In this document: piece after piece, positions 6,271 to 57,639 of the stretch | Position numbering within the stretch: position 1 is the stretch's first letter | How the letters are laid out: every line of letters starts with the position of its first letter | Source of the DNA: Carcharhinus longimanus | Lineage: Eukaryota | Direction: 5' to 3' | DNA length: 64,000 nucleotides | NCBI GenBank assembly: GCA_030264375.1 | Contig: JASCQW010000137.1 | Coordinates: forward strand, 40,565,172-40,629,171 | Translations under genes and position numbers: made by a program | The notes under the pieces: generated by a model | The model's input: the letters and a program-made list of their open reading frames with translations, nothing else | What the model was told of the DNA's origin: nothing | Databases searched by the model: none

Positions 6271-8691
6271 ATAACCTCATTGGAACTCTTCAAGCTGTCA
6301 CAGATCTGTCCAAGCTCATTGGACTTGCAAAAGCTATCAAGGGATTTAACTTGGTTGGACTTTACATTTTTCAAAAAGTATGGAATATCAGTGCTTAATA
6401 TTTCACTCCATCTGTTGACATAAGACTGAGGGTTGTCATTCTGTGATTTGTGCTACGTAATTGATTTTACAACCTAACATTATCACAGCGCCGTGTTTGT
6501 TAAGTGAGCAATTTGATTGACAAATCCAAGTGATTATAATATAAATGTTTGATTTCAGACAAGCTTAGTCGAAGGAAATTCAATATGTACTTTTTTTAGA
6601 ATTTTTTTTAAATACACATCATCAATAGACACAGCCTTATTTTATTTCACCATGGCTTCTGAGGTTTCCCCATGGGGAGTATTGGTTGAGTTGGAATGCA
6701 ATAGGTAAGAAGATAAGGTTGGGGATAACATGAGTTGTCACNNNNNNNNNNNNNNNNNNNNNNNNNNNNNNNNNNNNNNNNNNNNNNNNNNNNNNNNNNN
6801 NNNNNNNNNNNNNNNNNNNNNNNNNNNNNNNNNNNNNNNNNNNNNNNNNNNNNNNNNNNNNNNNNNNNNNNNNNNNNNNNNNNNNNNNNNNNNNNNNNNN
6901 NNNNNNNNNNNNNNNNNNNNNNNNNNNNNNNNNNNNNNNNNNNNNNNNNNNGTGGGTGTTTAGGGGTGTGTGGGGGAGGGGCTGAGACAGGCCTTCCACC
7001 CAGCTTCAGCCTCCATACATTCTAGGTTGGAAGTCATAACTTCTAACCCAGCCCTTGTGATACTGGCAGGACTTCCTGTCCCTGCAGATGGAGCAGAGGC
7101 ACTCTGACCCTATTAAGGCTGTACTATCGCTGTGAGGCATCTGAGATGCCATTGCACTTTTTGGTCAAGATGCAGGTAAGCAGCCCCCCTCCCCCATAAA
7201 ATCCATCCCTACAAATCTCTTGTTCAGGCATAGGCACTGCCAATAAACCCAATGGATTTGGGGGAAAATCAACTGAAGCCCCAGTCAAGTGGTTGTACTT
7301 GGATCGAAGCAGGCAATCAGCAGATCTCCGTGAAAATTCTGTCCATTGGAAGGGATTTTCCACGTATCCCTTCATGTTTTTCACATTGGTGAAGATGGCC
7401 TGCTTTTGGTCCTGCCGCTGTTAACAAGGTTCCCTATTCTATGCACACCCTGCAGCTAGCAAACGCATGGCAGCAGTTCACTGTCCTCCGGTGCAACCGG
7501 AGGATCCCGCTGGCAGGAATGGCCGGAAAATTCCAGCCATTGTTTTTGACTTGATTGACTAAGCCGGTAATTGGAGGATTAGCCCTTACTTTTGGGGGTA
7601 TTCTCTATATTCAGAACAGTTTACTTCAATAAGCCCCAACTTCCAAGCTGCCTACAGAACATAATTGAACATTCCTGTAAACAGGAGGTAGTACGTTTCG
7701 ATTCCTCAATGTATATGAGGCAGCCGCATGCTTGTGCCTCCTTCAGAATGAAGCTCTCTGCACATTGATAGTAATTGAAATGGTGGCACTGTCTCAATGC
7801 AAGCGAGGACAAGATAACTGCAATGAAATAATGAAACCAGTTGTAGTCTGATTATCCTGACTTAAATGCTAGTCAGTGTTGTGCAGTGACTAATACTCAT
7901 AAATAGTGCAAAGGGATCTCACGAGGGCAACCTGTAACTGAATATGAGCAGTGAAATCAGAGACCAAAAGGCCATCTGCTATTCTGTGCCAGGAGCTGAT
8001 GTGACCTTAAACAAATTTCTTACTCATTAATTGGATTAGATTCACCCTTTTGCCAGTGTTTTTTTTTATAGTTGCTGCACAATCAAAAGAACATTCTGGA
8101 ATTGCTTTATTAAAAAAAAGATCCTAATCTGTTACTTTATGATACATATTTTCTTCAAGAAGCAGAGTTAAACCCGTCATCAGGAGTCTTCTGTTACCTC
8201 AGATCATTGGTACAGGTTCCAAGGAGCCTTGTAATGGGAACAAGTGATTGTAAGATGATAGCTAATGTTCAGCACGTCAAGAATCAGATCTGGTTTCATT
8301 TCATCCACTCTGATATAGGCGAAAGCAAAAATGTAGTCTCCACCAATCAAAAAGACAAAGTTCNNNNNNNNNNNNNNNNNNNNNNNNNNNNNNNNNNNNN
8401 NNNNNNNNNNNNNNNNNNNNNNNNNNNNNNNNNNNNNNNNNNNNNNNNNNNNNNNNNNNNNNNTGATGCTCCACCTTGGAATATTGAACTAAGAAAAAGG
8501 AGTAGATAGTTGCAATGAACTAATCTTTATCAAGCATTTGCATCTCCATTTAAATTTGAAGTTAATTTTTCTCTCCCTCTTTTCAACCATCCTAAACAAT
8601 TTGCAAGCTTTCTTTTTGCCCCTGTTAATCAGACCCTTTTGCTCATTAGTTGGGGGTTAGTTGGAATGAGCTGAGATAGTCATGATGCCTT

Positions 8692-8862
8692 GATGTGGAG
8701 ATGCCGGCGTTGGACTGGGGTAAACACAGTAAGAAGTCTCATAACACCAGGTTAAAGTTCAACAGGTTTATTTGGTAGAGAGTCACCTGACAAAGGAGCA
8801 GTGCTCCGAAAGCTAGTGGTGTTTGCTACTAAATAAACCTGTTGGACTTGAACCTGGTGTTA
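8692..8862. mobile_element. Penelope-like fold-back element (family A) with decayed hammerhead
   Basis: Inverted arms acaccaggttaaagttcaacaggtttattt / aaataaacctgttggacttgaacctggtgt, one-sided tail, core tcac-CTGACAA-a-GGAGC agt GCTCC-GAAA-GC-TA-gtg at 8783-8818. Confidence 0.8.
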
Positions 8863-9014
8863 TAGTCAAACCTTTCCATCCTTTTTGTTAGGAAGCTCCT
8901 GACCAGTGCTGACCTCTGACATCTCAAGTGGGACCACAGCTGGGGTGCCAACCAGGGCTCAGCGGTTCAGTCCTTTGGATGAGACTTTAAAGCTTGCCCT
9001 CTGAAGTGATGAAG

Positions 9015-11767: not shown

Positions 11768-11870
11768 ACAGCTCTGACAAAGGGTTATCTGGACTCAAAA
11801 TGTTGCCTCTACTCTCTCCCCATGGATGCTGTCAGACCTGCTGAGGTTTTCCAACATTTTCTGTTTCAGT
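11768..11870 (+). mobile_element. Penelope-like family B fragment with decayed hammerhead
   Basis: CTGACAA-a-GGGTT atctg GACTC-AAAA-TG-TT followed by gatgctgtcagacctgctgag. Confidence 0.65.
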
Positions 11871-11899
11871 TACCACAGAGCCCTGCCTGGTAAGCGTAA

Positions 11900-26068: not shown

Positions 26069-26128
26069 ATGTTGGTTGCTGGTGGACACCATGCCGAACT
26101 CCGGAAGCAGACCAGGCATTGTTCCCCA

Positions 26129-26425
26129 TTAACATTCCAGGCAATGACCACACATGTTTACAACTTTAAGGTAAATGAGGCATGAGGCTATTTTTTGCCC
26201 CTGTAGCTAACTGCCTCTGTCTGAGAGTTGATAAGATAAAACAGCTTCTTACACCTTTAGCTAACTATTTACCCAACCCACCCTTTGATAAAAAGTAATT
26301 TACTCCATTTGTTCAGTTACAATTCGATTTTCAAGTGCTCCCCATCTTGGGACCAAGCTTCTGATATCCATTTGACAGGTGTCAGCTGTTTCTAGACATT
26401 CCATTAGGAGGTAATGTAGATTAGG
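26129..26425 (+). repeat. Left arm of 297-bp inverted duplication
   Basis: Reverse complement of 28224-28520 with about 14 substitutions counted by eye. Confidence 0.96.
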
Positions 26426-27905: not shown

Positions 27906-28047
27906 CAGTAAGAAGTCTCACAACACCAGGTTAAAGTCCAATAGGTTTATTTGGTAGTAAATGCCACTAAACCTGTTGGACTTTAACCTGATGTTGTGAG
28001 ACTTCTTGCTGTGTTTACCCCAGTCCAACGCCAGCATCTTCACATTA
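27906..28047. mobile_element. Family A fold-back element with hammerhead deleted
   Basis: cagtaagaagtctcacaacaccaggttaaagtccaa pairs with ttggactttaacctgatgttgtgagacttcttgctg; tail follows. Confidence 0.85.
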
Positions 28048-28223
28048 CAATTTCCTCAGAAGAGATAGCCTGTGAGTGGGTGATTCACAGAATTTTTGTT
28101 TTCGATAGATATCAGATTGTGGTGCTTATCCTGTACAATGTAAGGTTACACTAACCTGTGTGTTTATCCACCCAAATTGGGATTGTCCCTGAACAGTCTG
28201 TCGGATGTTTTACATAGCTGGGC

Positions 28224-28520
28224 CCTAATCTACATTACCTCCTGATGGAATGTCTAGAAACAGCTGACACCTGTCAAATGGATATCAGAATCTTGGTCCC
28301 AAGATGGGGAGCACTTGAAAATCGAATTGTAACTGAACAAATGGAGCGAATTATCTTTTATCAAAGAGGGGGTTGGGTAAATAGTTAGCTAAAGGTGTAA
28401 GAAGCTGTTTTATCTTATCAACTGTCAGACAGAGGCAATTAGCTACTGGGGTGAAAAATAGCCTCATGCCTCATTTACCTTAAAGTTGTAAACATGTGTG
28501 GTCATTGACTGGAATGTTAA
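28224..28520 (-). repeat. Right arm of 297-bp inverted duplication
   Basis: Reverse complement of 26129-26425. Confidence 0.96.
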
Positions 28521-28868
28521 TTTTAACTCTTAAGCTGCCAGCAGATTGAGGGAAATGTCCATCTTCTTAAATCGAGCAGTTTTCTAAGTCTTTAAATCAT
28601 GGAGAGATGTGGGCTATAATGCTGAGAATGTCATTGAGATATTCCTGATATTTATGCAGCTTTATTAATGTGATAGTAAACTTAAAATATTAAAAATGAA
28701 TGCCCAATTTCTCAAAAACCAAAAGGTAACCTTGTCTGATATTTTTCTTCATTTTTATTCTTTATCTTCCAATTTTGGAATGTAGACAAATTCATTTGTT
28801 ATCCTGCCGCCCCTGAGATTTGGATAGTTAGAACTACTTGAACTGTTGCAGCCTTTGTGATAATTCCT

Positions 28869-32558: not shown

Positions 32559-33485
32559 GACACTAATTAATAAATAAATCTTGAATACCGATGAACATTT
32601 GTGCACCGTACAAAGACTCAATACCTGCATGGGACTGGACAATACAAGGTGAATCAATGCAGTACTCGAGTGAAGTTACCTCACCTGATACTCCATCGGA
32701 TGAAGTATAATCCCTGTGACAACTGTAATGTGATGTCATCTATCTACAGATGGTTCATTGTAACTTCTTTCACAAAAAGAAAGAGGAAATTAAAGATTAG
32801 GCTGCCAGATTACGACAGTCAACACACTGTGAACCTGGGAACAGTTTAAACATATATCAACAGTGATCGTTCAGAATCTGAGGCTGGAATTTTCCAGTCA
32901 CTCATGTCCCACTGCAAGCGAGGATAGAGAATTTGGTGAAATCTTGGTTCAGTGCAGCAGGACCAAAGAATTCCGCTGGCATGAACAGCTGGAAAATTCA
33001 TCCCAGTGTTGCTGTGGCAACCTACACTTTTACATATATGTTATATGATCAGTGATGATCGAGGCTCCAATGTTCTTTCCATCACACGGCTGACCAGGTA
33101 TCTCTCTCACTCTTGCCATTGGCGTGTGTTGGAGGGATTTGCTGGCTGATACCCAGTCTGTCTGACTGCATTACAAATGCACCTTTCTTGGCCATCAAGG
33201 GGGACTTGAACCTGAAGCTTATGCCTCAGAGGTAAGGACACTACCCACTGCAGACCTCCCGAAGCACAAAGGAAACTATATAAAATTTTATACGTATTTA
33301 ACTCATGCCAGTCATATTTCAGATGGCATGCTCCAAATGTCACACTTGCTTATGAATCCCAAAAACAAATGTTTATAAAGAAAGCGACAGTAAGCCAACC
33401 TTAAACCTGCCTGCTAGAATTGACAAGAAACGAAGAATTGCATAGAGATTTTGGCAGTTTGCAACAAACTACAATTACCGGGGTA

Positions 33486-33606
33486 AATGCAAAATACTGC
33501 CAATGCTGGAATCTGAAACAAAAACAGAAAAATCTCAGCAGGTCTGTCAGCATCTGTGGAGAGAGAATAGAGCCAACATTTCGAGTCAAGATGACCCTTC
33601 ATCAGC
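33486..33606 (-). mobile_element. Penelope-like family B fragment
   Basis: Body tctcagcaggtctgtcagcatctgtgg is shared with the 11820 and 35310 copies; ends at the hammerhead core. Confidence 0.75.
33571..33605 (-). ncRNA. Hammerhead ribozyme core (family B), stem I unpaired
   Basis: CUGAUGA-A-GGGUC aucuu GACUC-GAAA-UG-UU. Confidence 0.65.
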
Positions 33607-33724
33607 AGGCAGGACTTTGCTTTANNNNNNNNNNNNNNNNNNNNNNNNNNNNNNNNNNNNNNNNNNNNNNNNNNNNNNNNNNNNNNNNNNNNNNNNNNNN
33701 NNNNNNNNNNNNNNNNNNNNNNNN

Positions 33725-33906
33725 CTTTCGGGGTTAGCCCATTCATCAGATGAAGGGAGAGTTCTGGCCTCAGACAGAGCTTTATATAAGCACAGGCCAG
33801 AACTCTCCATTCACCTGATGAAGGGGCTAACCCCGAAAGCTAGTGAGTGTACTATCGAATAAATCGGTTGGACTTAAACCTGGTGTTGTCAGACTTTTTA
33901 CTCTGC
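33725..33906. mobile_element. Family A fold-back element with hammerheads on both strands
   Basis: Arms 33725-33770 and 33794-33839 are inverted; followed by aataaatcggttggacttaaacctggtgttg. Confidence 0.88.
33809..33848 (+). ncRNA. Minimal type-I hammerhead ribozyme, intact core
   Basis: AUUCAC-CUGAUGA-A-GGGG cuaa CCCC-GAAA-GC-UA^GUGAGU: 6-bp stem I, 4-bp stem II, palindromic AGCU in place of stem III. Confidence 0.85.
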
Positions 33907-35186
33907 CTTTGCCAGCAGTCTCTGCATCAGTCAGGACAATTGAAGAAAAGCTTAAGTCCAGCAGACTTCCTATTTTCTCTCAGTCGGAAAAAATCGAATG
34001 TTCACTATAGATGCACTGCAGACATCTATAATTCTATTATTTGCGCCTTTAATATTATATTGCGAGTGCCCTTGATTTGCAGTGAGCCGCTCCAATATTT
34101 CTCAGGTCGAGGTTCATTTGACAAATGTTTTATGACTCTGCCCCTTTAAATTATATGTTATCATTGAGGCTGACAGTTGAGGCTCAAGTTAGCTGCATTT
34201 TCAGTAGCGGTAGCTTTCTCCGGGGAGCTTGTGTACTCTTGCACAATCATGTTCTTCAATCCCAAAGGGAAAGTATGACTTAACTCAGTAACATGTTGCA
34301 GTTACTTTGATGTACTGTCACTTTCCTTCTGGTTATTTTGGTAACTTTAATTAGAATGATAAAAGTTCATAACAGTAACAAGGAGAGCTTGTAAAGACAT
34401 CAAAATTTTCATCAAATCTAAACAAAATTTTACTAGAATTGTGCAGTATATTTATAAAATCTAGTCTGTAGATTACATTTTTGATTAGTTTCAAGTACAC
34501 CTACAGCAGGAAAATGGGATATTGCCTGTAGAATGTGCTGACTTGTCATTTTGTCTGCGCCTCGTACATAAGTGTGCTCTGCCAGTTTATATTCAAACGA
34601 ATTAATTTATTTTTTTCTGTCTAACTTGCCGTGCTGTGCGATATGTCATTAGATTATGAAGTGCAAAGCTAAAACGGCATAGACAGTGAAAAGTGCAGGT
34701 TATTGTCGTTGCCCAGAAATCACTAACAATCTCTTACCTTTTGGCATCAGAATATTAGTATAGTCGACAGAATATCTTTATAAGGCTTGTTAGCATGGTG
34801 GGCATCATTTAGATGCTTCAGTTAACCTCAGGCAATGCACAAAGTAATAACATGGGGTTTAATTGTTTTGCCATCATTTTAACCAAAGATCTGTGGCAGC
34901 ACTAGAGAACCAGTAAAAGTGCACCACTTCTGTGGACCATTTGTCAGAATTGTAGTGGGCAATTGGGAGAACCTTTGGGGGAAGCCCTATGGGCTAGAAA
35001 TTCATCTTGGACAGTGGCACAGAACAGGTAGTAGCAGATCACCCCCACATTGTGCATGGTATCTGTATTAAACTCCATTGACAACTGAGTTGAGTATCAG
35101 ATTGCCAAGCCATACCAGCCATTTCACAACACCAACCAAGACAAAGATCTATGCACCATAATCAAAAAAAAATCTGACAGAGGATA

Positions 35187-35352
35187 AAAGAAAATTACTG
35201 TGGATGCTGGAATCTGGAACCAAAAGAGAAAATGCTGGAAAATCTCAGCAGCTCAACGCTTTGACAAAGGGAAATCTGGACTTGAAAATTCAACTCTTTT
35301 CTCTCCCCACAGATGCTGCCAGACCTGCTGAGGTTTTCCAGCATTTTCTCTA
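35187..35352. mobile_element. Family B fold-back element with decayed hammerhead
   Basis: agagaaaatgctggaaaatctcagcag / ctgctgaggttttccagcattttctct arms around ttgacaa-a-gggaa atctg gactt-gaaa. Confidence 0.75.
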
Positions 35353-35988
35353 TTGGCTTAAAAATCAGACAGTTGACACTAAACCTCCAGATATTTTATT
35401 AATCTGAAGTTGAGATGAAGGGAATAAAGTCAAGGAAATGGGTGCCATATTAATCAGCACCTGAAGGGGAATGAAAGGGAAACATTAAGGCGCGATGCTT
35501 CAACACACCCGATTTTCTGAGTTACTGTTGACCAGTCTTATTTAACAAACTCTATTTTGCAAAGCACAGTCTTACTCCCAGATATACCCATAGATTTTCT
35601 GCTTGGTTTCCATTGTTTTCTGTACTTCTAGATACTATAATGAAGCCTGGAGTTAGCTAACCTGCAGGAAATTGCCATCTTATCTTCCGATTTGGATTAC
35701 ATCCCTAATCTAAATTTCCATGTAAGTCCAAAAATAACACTGGTTCCTGATTTTCCGAGGCAGCAAACTCCAGATAAGAATCCAGTTCTCTGTACAAAAT
35801 CATCGTCTATCGTGCAACATGCATTGTTCATTTAATACTGGATGGCGCAGCAAGTAGATAAGGCAAGACCTGGCTGCTGTGTTAATGAAAAGCACAGAAT
35901 ATGCAAGAAATAGGTTTGAAAGTACGTGTCTGCTGCCCCCTGTATACAGTTATTTTTCATCAACCCTGCAGTGCCGAACTATGCATAT

Positions 35989-36192
35989 ACAGTAAGAAGT
36001 CTCGCAACACCACGTTAAAGTCCAACAGGTTTATTTGGAATCACGAGCTTTTGGACCGCTGCTCCTTCATCAGGTGAGCGGAGAAGTTGGTTTCACAAAC
36101 ACGGTATCTATAGACCAAGACACAGTTGCAAGATAATGGGGTTGGAATGCAAGTCTTTACAGGTAATCAAGGCTTCACAGGTACAGACAATG
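35989..36192 (-). mobile_element. Family A single arm with mutated hammerhead (36041-36077)
   Basis: Reverse complement: tcac-CTGATGA-a-GGAGC agc GGTCC-AAAA-GC-TC-gtga (GAAA changed to AAAA). Confidence 0.82.
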
Positions 36193-50808: not shown

Positions 50809-51347
50809 GTAAGAAGTCTCACACCAGGTTAGAGTCCAACCAGTTTATTTGATCGTAATCTCACAAACTTTCGGAAACGGTGTTCCTTCGTCAGGTGTGT
50901 GGAAGGTTCTGATAAGAGAAGGCAATATAAAGACACACTCAGTTTACAGAATACTGATTAGAATGCAAGTCTTTACAGCTAACCTGCTATTCAAGTCTTA
51001 AAGATGCAGACAATGTNNNNNNNNNNNNNNNNNNNNNNNNNNNNNNNNNNNNNNNNNNNNNNNNNNNNNNNNNNNNNNNNNNNNNNNNNNNNNNNNNNNN
51101 NNNNNNNNNNNNNNNNGCAGACAATAGCAGGTTAGCTGTAAAGACTTGCATTCTAATCAGTATTCTGTAAACTGTGTGTGACTTTATATTCCCTTCTCTT
51201 ATCAGAACCTTCTACACACCTGATGAAGGAACACCATTTCCGAAAGTTTGTGGGTTTACTATCAAATAAACTGATTGGACTCTAACCTGGTGTTATGAGA
51301 CTTCTTACTGTGTTTACCTCAGTCCAACGCCGGCATCTCCACATCAT
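50809..51347. mobile_element. Family A long fold-back element with a hammerhead in each arm
   Basis: 50809-50990 is inverted relative to 51123-51308; one-sided tail to 51347; a gap lies in the loop. Confidence 0.88.
51217..51252 (+). ncRNA. Minimal hammerhead ribozyme (mirror copy on - at about 50862-50897)
   Basis: CAC-CUGAUGA-A-GGAA caccau UUCC-GAAA-GU-UU^GUG; the mirror copy has CUGACGA. Confidence 0.72.
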
Positions 51348-56406: not shown

Positions 56407-56934
56407 TATAATGCAGAAACAGACAAAAGGGAGAGATTCTAAGCAGGATGGCTGAAAACACCGCTGAAAATATAAGTTTTAAAGTAGATTTTTAAAGGAG
56501 ATGGGAAAGGTAGCATGACTGAAGAAAGAAGTTGTGGACAGGTAGGGCCAAGGCAGATAAAGGCTTTCCCATCAAGAGTGCAAGGTACATAATTCACAAG
56601 GCAAAGGAGATTGCAAAGCTATGGTGGAATAAGGACATGAAGGGATTTGAAGACACAGTGAAGGTTTAGCTCTAAAGCCTTAGGAAACAGTGTAACTATG
56701 ATGACAGAGCGAGGAAGAGTAGAACTTAGTCTGCGACACAACACTAGAGGTTTAGTTTTAGACTTCAATGTGTGTTCTTCAATGTGTGTTCCTTTTGAGT
56801 GTGGCTCTACCCAGGAGTGCAGAATCATCAAATAAACAGCACAAGGTCTAAAGAAGTGTCATACCTGGCTCTGTTTCTCTCTCTACAGATGTTGCCAGAC
56901 ATGCTGAGAGCTCAGGAACATTGTTTAAAAATAA

Positions 56935-57180
56935 AGAAAGTCTCCCAGTTAAAATGGAAATTAAAATATATTTTTTTCTCTCAGAGGGGCGTGAATTTTT
57001 GGAACTGACTTCCCCGGAGGGAAGGGAGGAGGCAGATAGATTCATGACTAACAAGGGGAGTCAAAAGTTATTGAGGATAGGTGTGAATGTGGGGTTGAGG
57101 CTGCAATCACATCAGCCATGGTTTTATTGACTGGCAGAGCAGGCTAGAGGAGCCGATTTACTCTTGCTCCTGATCTGTGT
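56935..57180 (+). mobile_element. CR1 3' relic
   Basis: Encodes FFSQRGVNFWN; atcagccatg tail. Confidence 0.78.
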
Positions 57181-57639
57181 GTTTGAATGTTTGCATTCCA
57201 AGCACTTTCTGTTTTTAGTTAAGCTTTCCAACATCTGCAGTATTTTGCTTTTTGTTAACTGCTCCTTGGACGTTCCTGGGATTTATTTACCCCTCATTGC
57301 TATCCCAGTTCTGTATTCTGCTGTAATAGCCAGATCCACTGCAGGTTCTTTCATCCACATTCGGCATGACTTTAGCATTATATTGCCTCCTACATCCAAC
57401 ATTTGACCATTTCAAAATCCAGCAATCATTGAGCTCTCGACCCTTTGTGTCACCACAGAACGTGACATGAAACTGAAGAGAATGACTATTTAACCAGAAA
57501 CCTTTTCAAAACATCAAACAAGAGTGTTCCCCTCTTTGAGAACCAAAAACCAGTTGGAACCTGGAAACAAATGAAACATATTAGAAAAATCCAGCAGTTT
57601 TTACGCTGGTACTGTTCGAGGGATTTCTATTGTATTGTG

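Follow-up and report, generated by a model that had tools for sequence, protein, structure and literature searches.

A palindrome of about 180 nt within the 64,000-nt stretch of shark DNA analysed here (the window) appears to carry a hammerhead ribozyme motif on each strand, which raises the question of how such an arrangement came about and whether it makes a functional RNA. A sequence-only reading had ranked it as the best functional RNA candidate of the window, a possible switch in which hairpin and ribozyme folds compete. The window contains 17 N gaps and is dense in dispersed repeats, and the palindrome that had been described was recovered: two arms of 46 nt (33725-33770 and 33794-33839) that are complementary at 43 of 46 positions (93%) lie 23 nt apart, the left one adjoining a 100-N assembly gap (33625-33724). 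Searches of the assembly (2.68 Gb, 68,774 contigs) and of related proteins led us to a different answer, which we hold with high confidence. The locus is the remnant of a single insertion of a high-copy Penelope-like retroelement (PLE), with two truncated pLTR ends lying head to head, and therefore the hammerhead motif occurs once per strand.

On the + strand, a complete minimal type-I hammerhead motif spans 33808-33849, as had been proposed. Stem I (33808-33814/33843-33849) comprises 7 bp including two G-U pairs, the core CUGAUGA (33815-33821) is followed by one extra A, and stem II (33823-33826/33831-33834) leads into GAAA at 33835-33838. The palindromic AGCU is present and A17 lies at 33842, so that our predicted cut after 33842 agrees with the UA cleavage site placed there by the sequence-only reading. 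Every element that defines a minimal hammerhead is present on this strand: besides the core and helices I and II, there is an additional base following position 9, G10.1 pairs with C11.1, positions 15-16 are palindromic and the cleavage site is of the UH type. The claim of a hammerhead on both strands thus stands for the + strand, but not fully for the - strand, where only a partial mirror core was found (33726-33749). There, a U at position 10.1 (33741) faces C11.1, the conserved G-C pair is lost and this copy fails the strict scan, while the 3' half of the motif, with the cleavage site and the 3' strand of stem I, falls within the gap. The strict scan (core plus a 4-bp stem II) returned 4 sites in the window compared to a mean of 0.24 (maximum 2) in 100 Markov simulations. 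The motif is therefore above chance, though it is one of four such sites in the window. Rfam reported nothing in the window at the gathering score, and no hammerhead family at E≤10 in 33400-34000. We dismissed eleven weak Rfam matches obtained with E≤10, most of which were to generic miRNA-like hairpins and fell well short of the threshold.

Using the right arm as a query, we obtained 2194 first-look candidates in the genome, and among 40 that were scored, 39 other places were 95-97% alike. Each of four public runs from three studies contained between 26,733 and 42,093 contigs matching the right-arm repeat or the neighbouring repeat. At least five related copies of this pLTR family, including the present locus, reside in the 64-kb window. 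Membership in a high-copy PLE pLTR family had been overlooked by the sequence-only reading. Longer copies (L030, L031, L032, L034, L035 and L039 among them) run without a gap from the end of an ORF through a 3' spacer into the arm. The frame upstream of the pLTR, read by eye in translations, combines a linker of the form C-x4-C-x2-C with a GIY-YIG-like core that contains internal cysteines; Pfam GIY-YIG matched it weakly, under the cutoff. Of 80 candidate proteins, 21 were homologous to this endonuclease frame, the best named ones being from sharks. Several shark gene models (P0008, P0010, P0013, P0014 and P0021, annotated as septin, XRCC5, PPP1R12A-like, USP8 and others) contain pieces of the endonuclease, which could be annotation noise or exonisation.

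The shark protein P0005 (643 aa, 75% identity) combines a reverse transcriptase (RT), with RVT_1 present, and the endonuclease. Compared with the genome, it gave 82 matches among 69 scored candidates, and the genomic copies together cover residues 1-643. No uninterrupted full-length RT and endonuclease frame was seen among these 69 candidates, and flagged long open frames checked at 7 places held no real frame of ≥180 residues, most of them spanning N runs. Copies bearing RT and endonuclease end in a related pLTR, present as direct repeats in L105, and L101, L103, L104 and L108 have an inverted truncated pLTR copy ahead of the ORF; at the level of the family, direct and inverted pLTRs both occur, as in EN+ PLEs. 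The pLTRs of the RT-bearing copies belong to sister subfamilies and are about 72-84% alike to the right arm. For the window's own subfamily (87-97% alike), the link reaches no further than the C-terminal endonuclease, covering residues 520-643 of P0005 at most. Hence, RT and C-terminal GIY-YIG in one frame were found for the sister subfamilies, and the endonuclease end only for the window's own.

The C-x4-C-x2-C linker conforms to the CX2-5CxxC motif found between RT and endonuclease in Neptune elements. According to the accessible part of PMC8557442, linkers of this type are common to Neptune and Nematis, whereas Penelope and Poseidon are without them. The presence of the linker therefore excludes Penelope and Poseidon, and fits Neptune or Nematis. 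Nematis was found in none of the species sampled in the portion of 10.64898/2026.07.22.740005 that was available. The sequence of the linker suggests that the parent element is likely of the Neptune type. Among the matches listed in literature searches, which covered freely available papers, none dealt with this shark PLE family.

With the family in hand, the locus can be read as two pieces of one pLTR. The forward piece (33794-33902, + strand) is a pLTR 3' end that lacks the optional tail and is 95-97% alike to its best matches elsewhere in the genome; its right flank occurs once in the assembly. The other piece (33725-33795, - strand) is an inverted, 5'-truncated pLTR copy covering family positions of about -22 to +46. 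The 23-nt loop described earlier does contain TATATAA, which starts at 33783, but it is not a separate loop sequence: the inverted pLTR alignment extends through it to 33795, where it meets the forward arm at a shared AG. Positions 33781-33795, a segment without strand assignment, comprise the TATA-like AT run that belongs to the pLTR together with the inversion junction, whose 2-nt AG microhomology lies at 33794-33795. Exact and gapped pattern searches found this junction only once in the 2.68-Gb genome. P0005 had no tblastn match in the window at E≤1e-5 and no ORF remnant of the element was found at the locus, which is a non-coding remnant. From the layout of paired copies elsewhere, we predict that the gap at 33625-33724 conceals what is missing of the left arm, namely the cleavage strand, the pLTR end and the tail, along with the left target duplication. 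With its left boundary inside the gap, a target duplication is not readable at this locus.

Inverted pairs were surveyed in the 20 top loci, one of which is the locus studied here, with one natural copy (L032) as a reference. An inverted piece lay upstream in 12 of the 20, or in 11 of 19 when the present locus is set aside, and was often separated from the forward piece by a 100-N gap. Target duplications of 12-15 nt with at most one mismatch flanked 7 of the 12 paired loci, and the remaining 5 had flank duplications of 5-9 nt, these lengths being reported without a shuffle control. Three further pairs of the pLTR family were found within the window. A tail of about 37 nt was present on exactly one arm in 9 of 9 pairs from this set with both outer ends readable and in 3 of 3 other window pairs (12/12). 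The count left out L001 because of a gap, L007 as an internal piece and L009 as a member of another subfamily, and it may be biased by a query without a tail. The other pairs join at different points from this locus. An inverted partner is a habit of this PLE family. What had been taken for the best functional RNA candidate is thus one copy of a high-copy PLE pLTR with a routine inverted partner. Of 42 copies, 21 have the TATA-like run 29-30 nt ahead of the A in the 5' strand of stem I, 4 have it at a different spacing and 17 lack it; at this locus the spacing on the + strand is 26. Judged by sequence, the run is part of the pLTR.

Other members and neighbours were recorded along the window. 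Gap-free inverted pairs of the same pLTR family lie at 8691-8875 and 27906-28049, the latter apparently with a short flanking duplication, and a solo copy at 35989-36084. At 50809-51346, a sister subfamily is represented by a longer head-to-head pair that extends across a 100-N gap and has complete candidate cores on both strands (50894, - strand; 51220, + strand), called from the core alone and not from stem I. A 298-nt inverted repeat (26128-26425 and 28224-28521, 95% alike, 1.8 kb apart) encloses a pLTR pair and is possibly a non-autonomous DNA transposon. A second high-copy family (2319 candidates), whose copies start with a hammerhead-like core and frequently form palindromes, is represented at 33484-33605 (- strand), 11774-11875, 35185-35356 and 56866-57252. 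No parent frame was found for it in 14 loci, and it is likely another PLE derivative. We considered 33484-33605 as part of the same unit as the palindrome and rejected this, as it belongs to a different family with no linked frame in those 14 loci.

Could the palindrome nevertheless act as a co-opted regulatory RNA, its hairpin and ribozyme folds competing as a switch? The intact + motif and a strong hairpin of about -91 kcal/mol speak for such a device. However, hairpin and ribozyme folds differ by about 32 kcal/mol, and ensemble folding gave the ribozyme fold a probability of about 1e-23 with the left arm and of about 0.11 without it. Transcription from either side meets the antisense arm first, and this value indicates suppression and not competition. 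A read-through RNA is therefore predicted to form a fixed long hairpin that blocks cleavage, and RNA initiated at the central TATA-like box would contain no antisense arm at all; under the folding model, neither would be a switch. Cleavage of the internal-start transcript is possible because its + motif is intact. A two-monomer cofold with ViennaRNA yielded exchanged stems and not the AGCU-paired active dimer, which ViennaRNA is unable to model. The layout is moreover common to many copies, and the - core is damaged. We therefore regard the proposed switch as highly improbable. The copies themselves point to where the ribozyme may matter. After 7 duplicate loci had been dropped, 89 of 91 matches were distinct and 88 were parsed; 67 of the parsed copies had not been selected on the ribozyme and 21 had been selected for likeness. 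In the 67 copies, stem II pairs 2-4 were Watson-Crick in 56, 49 and 49 copies against shuffle means of 48, 31 and 37, values reached by none of 2000 shuffles, and G-C and A-U pairs were swapped between subfamilies; the shuffle test ignores relatedness and hence reflects a few subfamily-level changes. The core was intact in 33 of the 67, and 17 of these also had G10.1-C11.1. A fully intact motif like that of the + copy was present in 17 of the 67 unselected copies and 14 of the 21 likeness-selected ones. We read these patterns as suggesting a ribozyme under selection in transposing lineages that decays after insertion, and this copy is likely inert.

Another explanation is that reads of different repeat copies were merged into an artificial palindrome at the gap edge. 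The left arm does adjoin the gap, and on the far side the last 77 nt (33548-33624) are identical to a copy on another contig (L116), including 19 nt of non-family flank. That contig end is likely chimeric, and the sequence of the left arm may likewise be unreliable. Chimeric joins can occur at gap edges of this assembly, and one 7.9-kb contig (L072, G000:C68359) is apparently a single long palindrome whose two strands translate identically, likely through fold-back during assembly. However, the junction lies about 60 nt inside its contig, has its own AT-run variant and has no second occurrence in the genome, and the two arms are mismatched at 3 of 46 positions. Among the matches listed, no contig of runs X1, X2, X3 and X7 bridged the junction; 33789-33791 was uncovered in X1-X3, holes that prove nothing. 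One contig of X7 (organism C) matches from 33789 on and has a 21-nt loose end that resembles the left arm and folds back at the same point, too short for bridging. A wider contig comparison, swamped by repeat contigs, revealed no empty-site joint among the matches listed. Because it is unique, internal to its contig and accompanied by gap-free pairs nearby (8691-8875 and 27906-28049), and in view of the X7 loose end, which weighs little, the inversion junction is probably real, and an assembly chimera is quite unlikely. To a self-propagating palindromic unit, retrozyme or MITE-like and copied whole, possibly via circular RNA, we give virtually no credence. Animal retrozymes are related to pLTRs and present in a cartilaginous fish, as the available portion of 10.64898/2026.07.22.740005 reports, and the non-LTR retrozymes described there are likewise non-coding and hammerhead-bearing. 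They are, however, tandem head-to-tail units, whereas this locus is one head-to-head pair with a unique junction and no tandem array. A junction found once in 2.68 Gb by exact and gapped patterns is not that of a tandem unit amplified as a whole, and other pairs join elsewhere.

A single PLE insertion thus remains the preferred reading. Family membership, the link between the pLTR and the endonuclease frame, inverted pairs as a habit and the unique junction were established here, and they can be placed in a conditional scheme. The protein of the element would cut the target, cDNA would be copied from the pLTR end, and the 2-nt microhomology would serve to join two short products, each arm being antisense cDNA when read inward from its flank. 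Joining could proceed by priming from both cut strands, which we prefer, or by fold-back self-priming. In the accessible part of PMC11167929, a PLE protein cuts and extends both strands, and two RT start sites bound the tail; with these two properties, the joining of two cDNAs by microhomology would produce a head-to-head pair that has a single tail and is flanked by a target duplication. Our tentative proposal, to which we assign somewhat less than an even chance, is a two-ended integration in which each 3' end of the staggered cut primes a cDNA from a different one of the two tail-bounding start sites, and microhomology joins the cDNAs. Such a route would account for the tail on exactly one arm in every readable pair. 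Conversely, tight hairpin junctions in L007 and L008 fit fold-back self-priming, which remains a rival. The term 'twin priming' had no occurrence in PLE papers among the matches listed. The ribozyme would serve the RNA of the parent element, as a dimer or with help from the element's protein. The same part of PMC11167929 describes a PLE hammerhead that cleaves only with protein and is dispensable for insertion in vitro.

The architecture of this family resembles that of Neptune-type EN+ PLEs as covered in the accessible parts of PMC8557442 and PMC3846280: a pLTR after an RT and C-terminal GIY-YIG frame, an inverted 5'-truncated pLTR, an optional tail of 30-40 nt at one end only, short target duplications, a TATA-like box in the pLTR and difficulty for short-read assembly. 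Unlike them, the locus has no remaining ORF, and its clade was assigned by the linker motif alone and not by a tree. PMC8557442, in that part, describes an inverted 5'-truncated copy, a one-end tail, hammerheads in pLTRs and assembly trouble, and PMC3846280 reports target duplications, an inverted pLTR that overlaps its direct counterpart and a TATA box that can be read in either direction, and proposes self-priming. Minimal hammerheads in pLTRs and inverted pLTRs are therefore already published hallmarks of PLEs. As in the metazoan minimal hammerheads of PMC4209133 (accessible part), the motif is type I with no real helix III, palindromic at 15-16, with an extra base between 9 and 10.1 and G10.1-C11.1. 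That source reports thousands per genome, opposite-strand pairs, no monomer cleavage and low dimer cleavage, in agreement with the earlier view that hammerheads of this kind cleave as dimers. Its opposite-strand pairs lie about 100-700 bp apart, whereas about 65 nt separate the two cores at this locus, and helices II and I measure 4 and 7 bp here versus 7-8 and 4-5 bp in the Schistosoma motif. The hosts named in that main-text part are fishes, coelacanth, Xenopus and reptiles, with no sharks. PAc (Poseidon) of the green anole (PMC11167929, accessible part) likewise has a pLTR hammerhead and a tail; it differs in belonging to a clade without the linker motif and in that its cleavage was measured, whereas cleavage here is predicted from the nucleotides.

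The locus itself, an ordinary PLE remnant, is of little weight, while its family may be useful. Two-strand hammerheads in fish, shark and amphibian DNA are to be expected from Penelope insertions. How inverted structures form in PLEs is called undefined in the accessible part of PMC8557442, and this genome offers many young pairs with readable tails, junctions and duplications. If two-ended integration is true, shark genomes would provide thousands of natural products for testing this step of the Penelope cycle.
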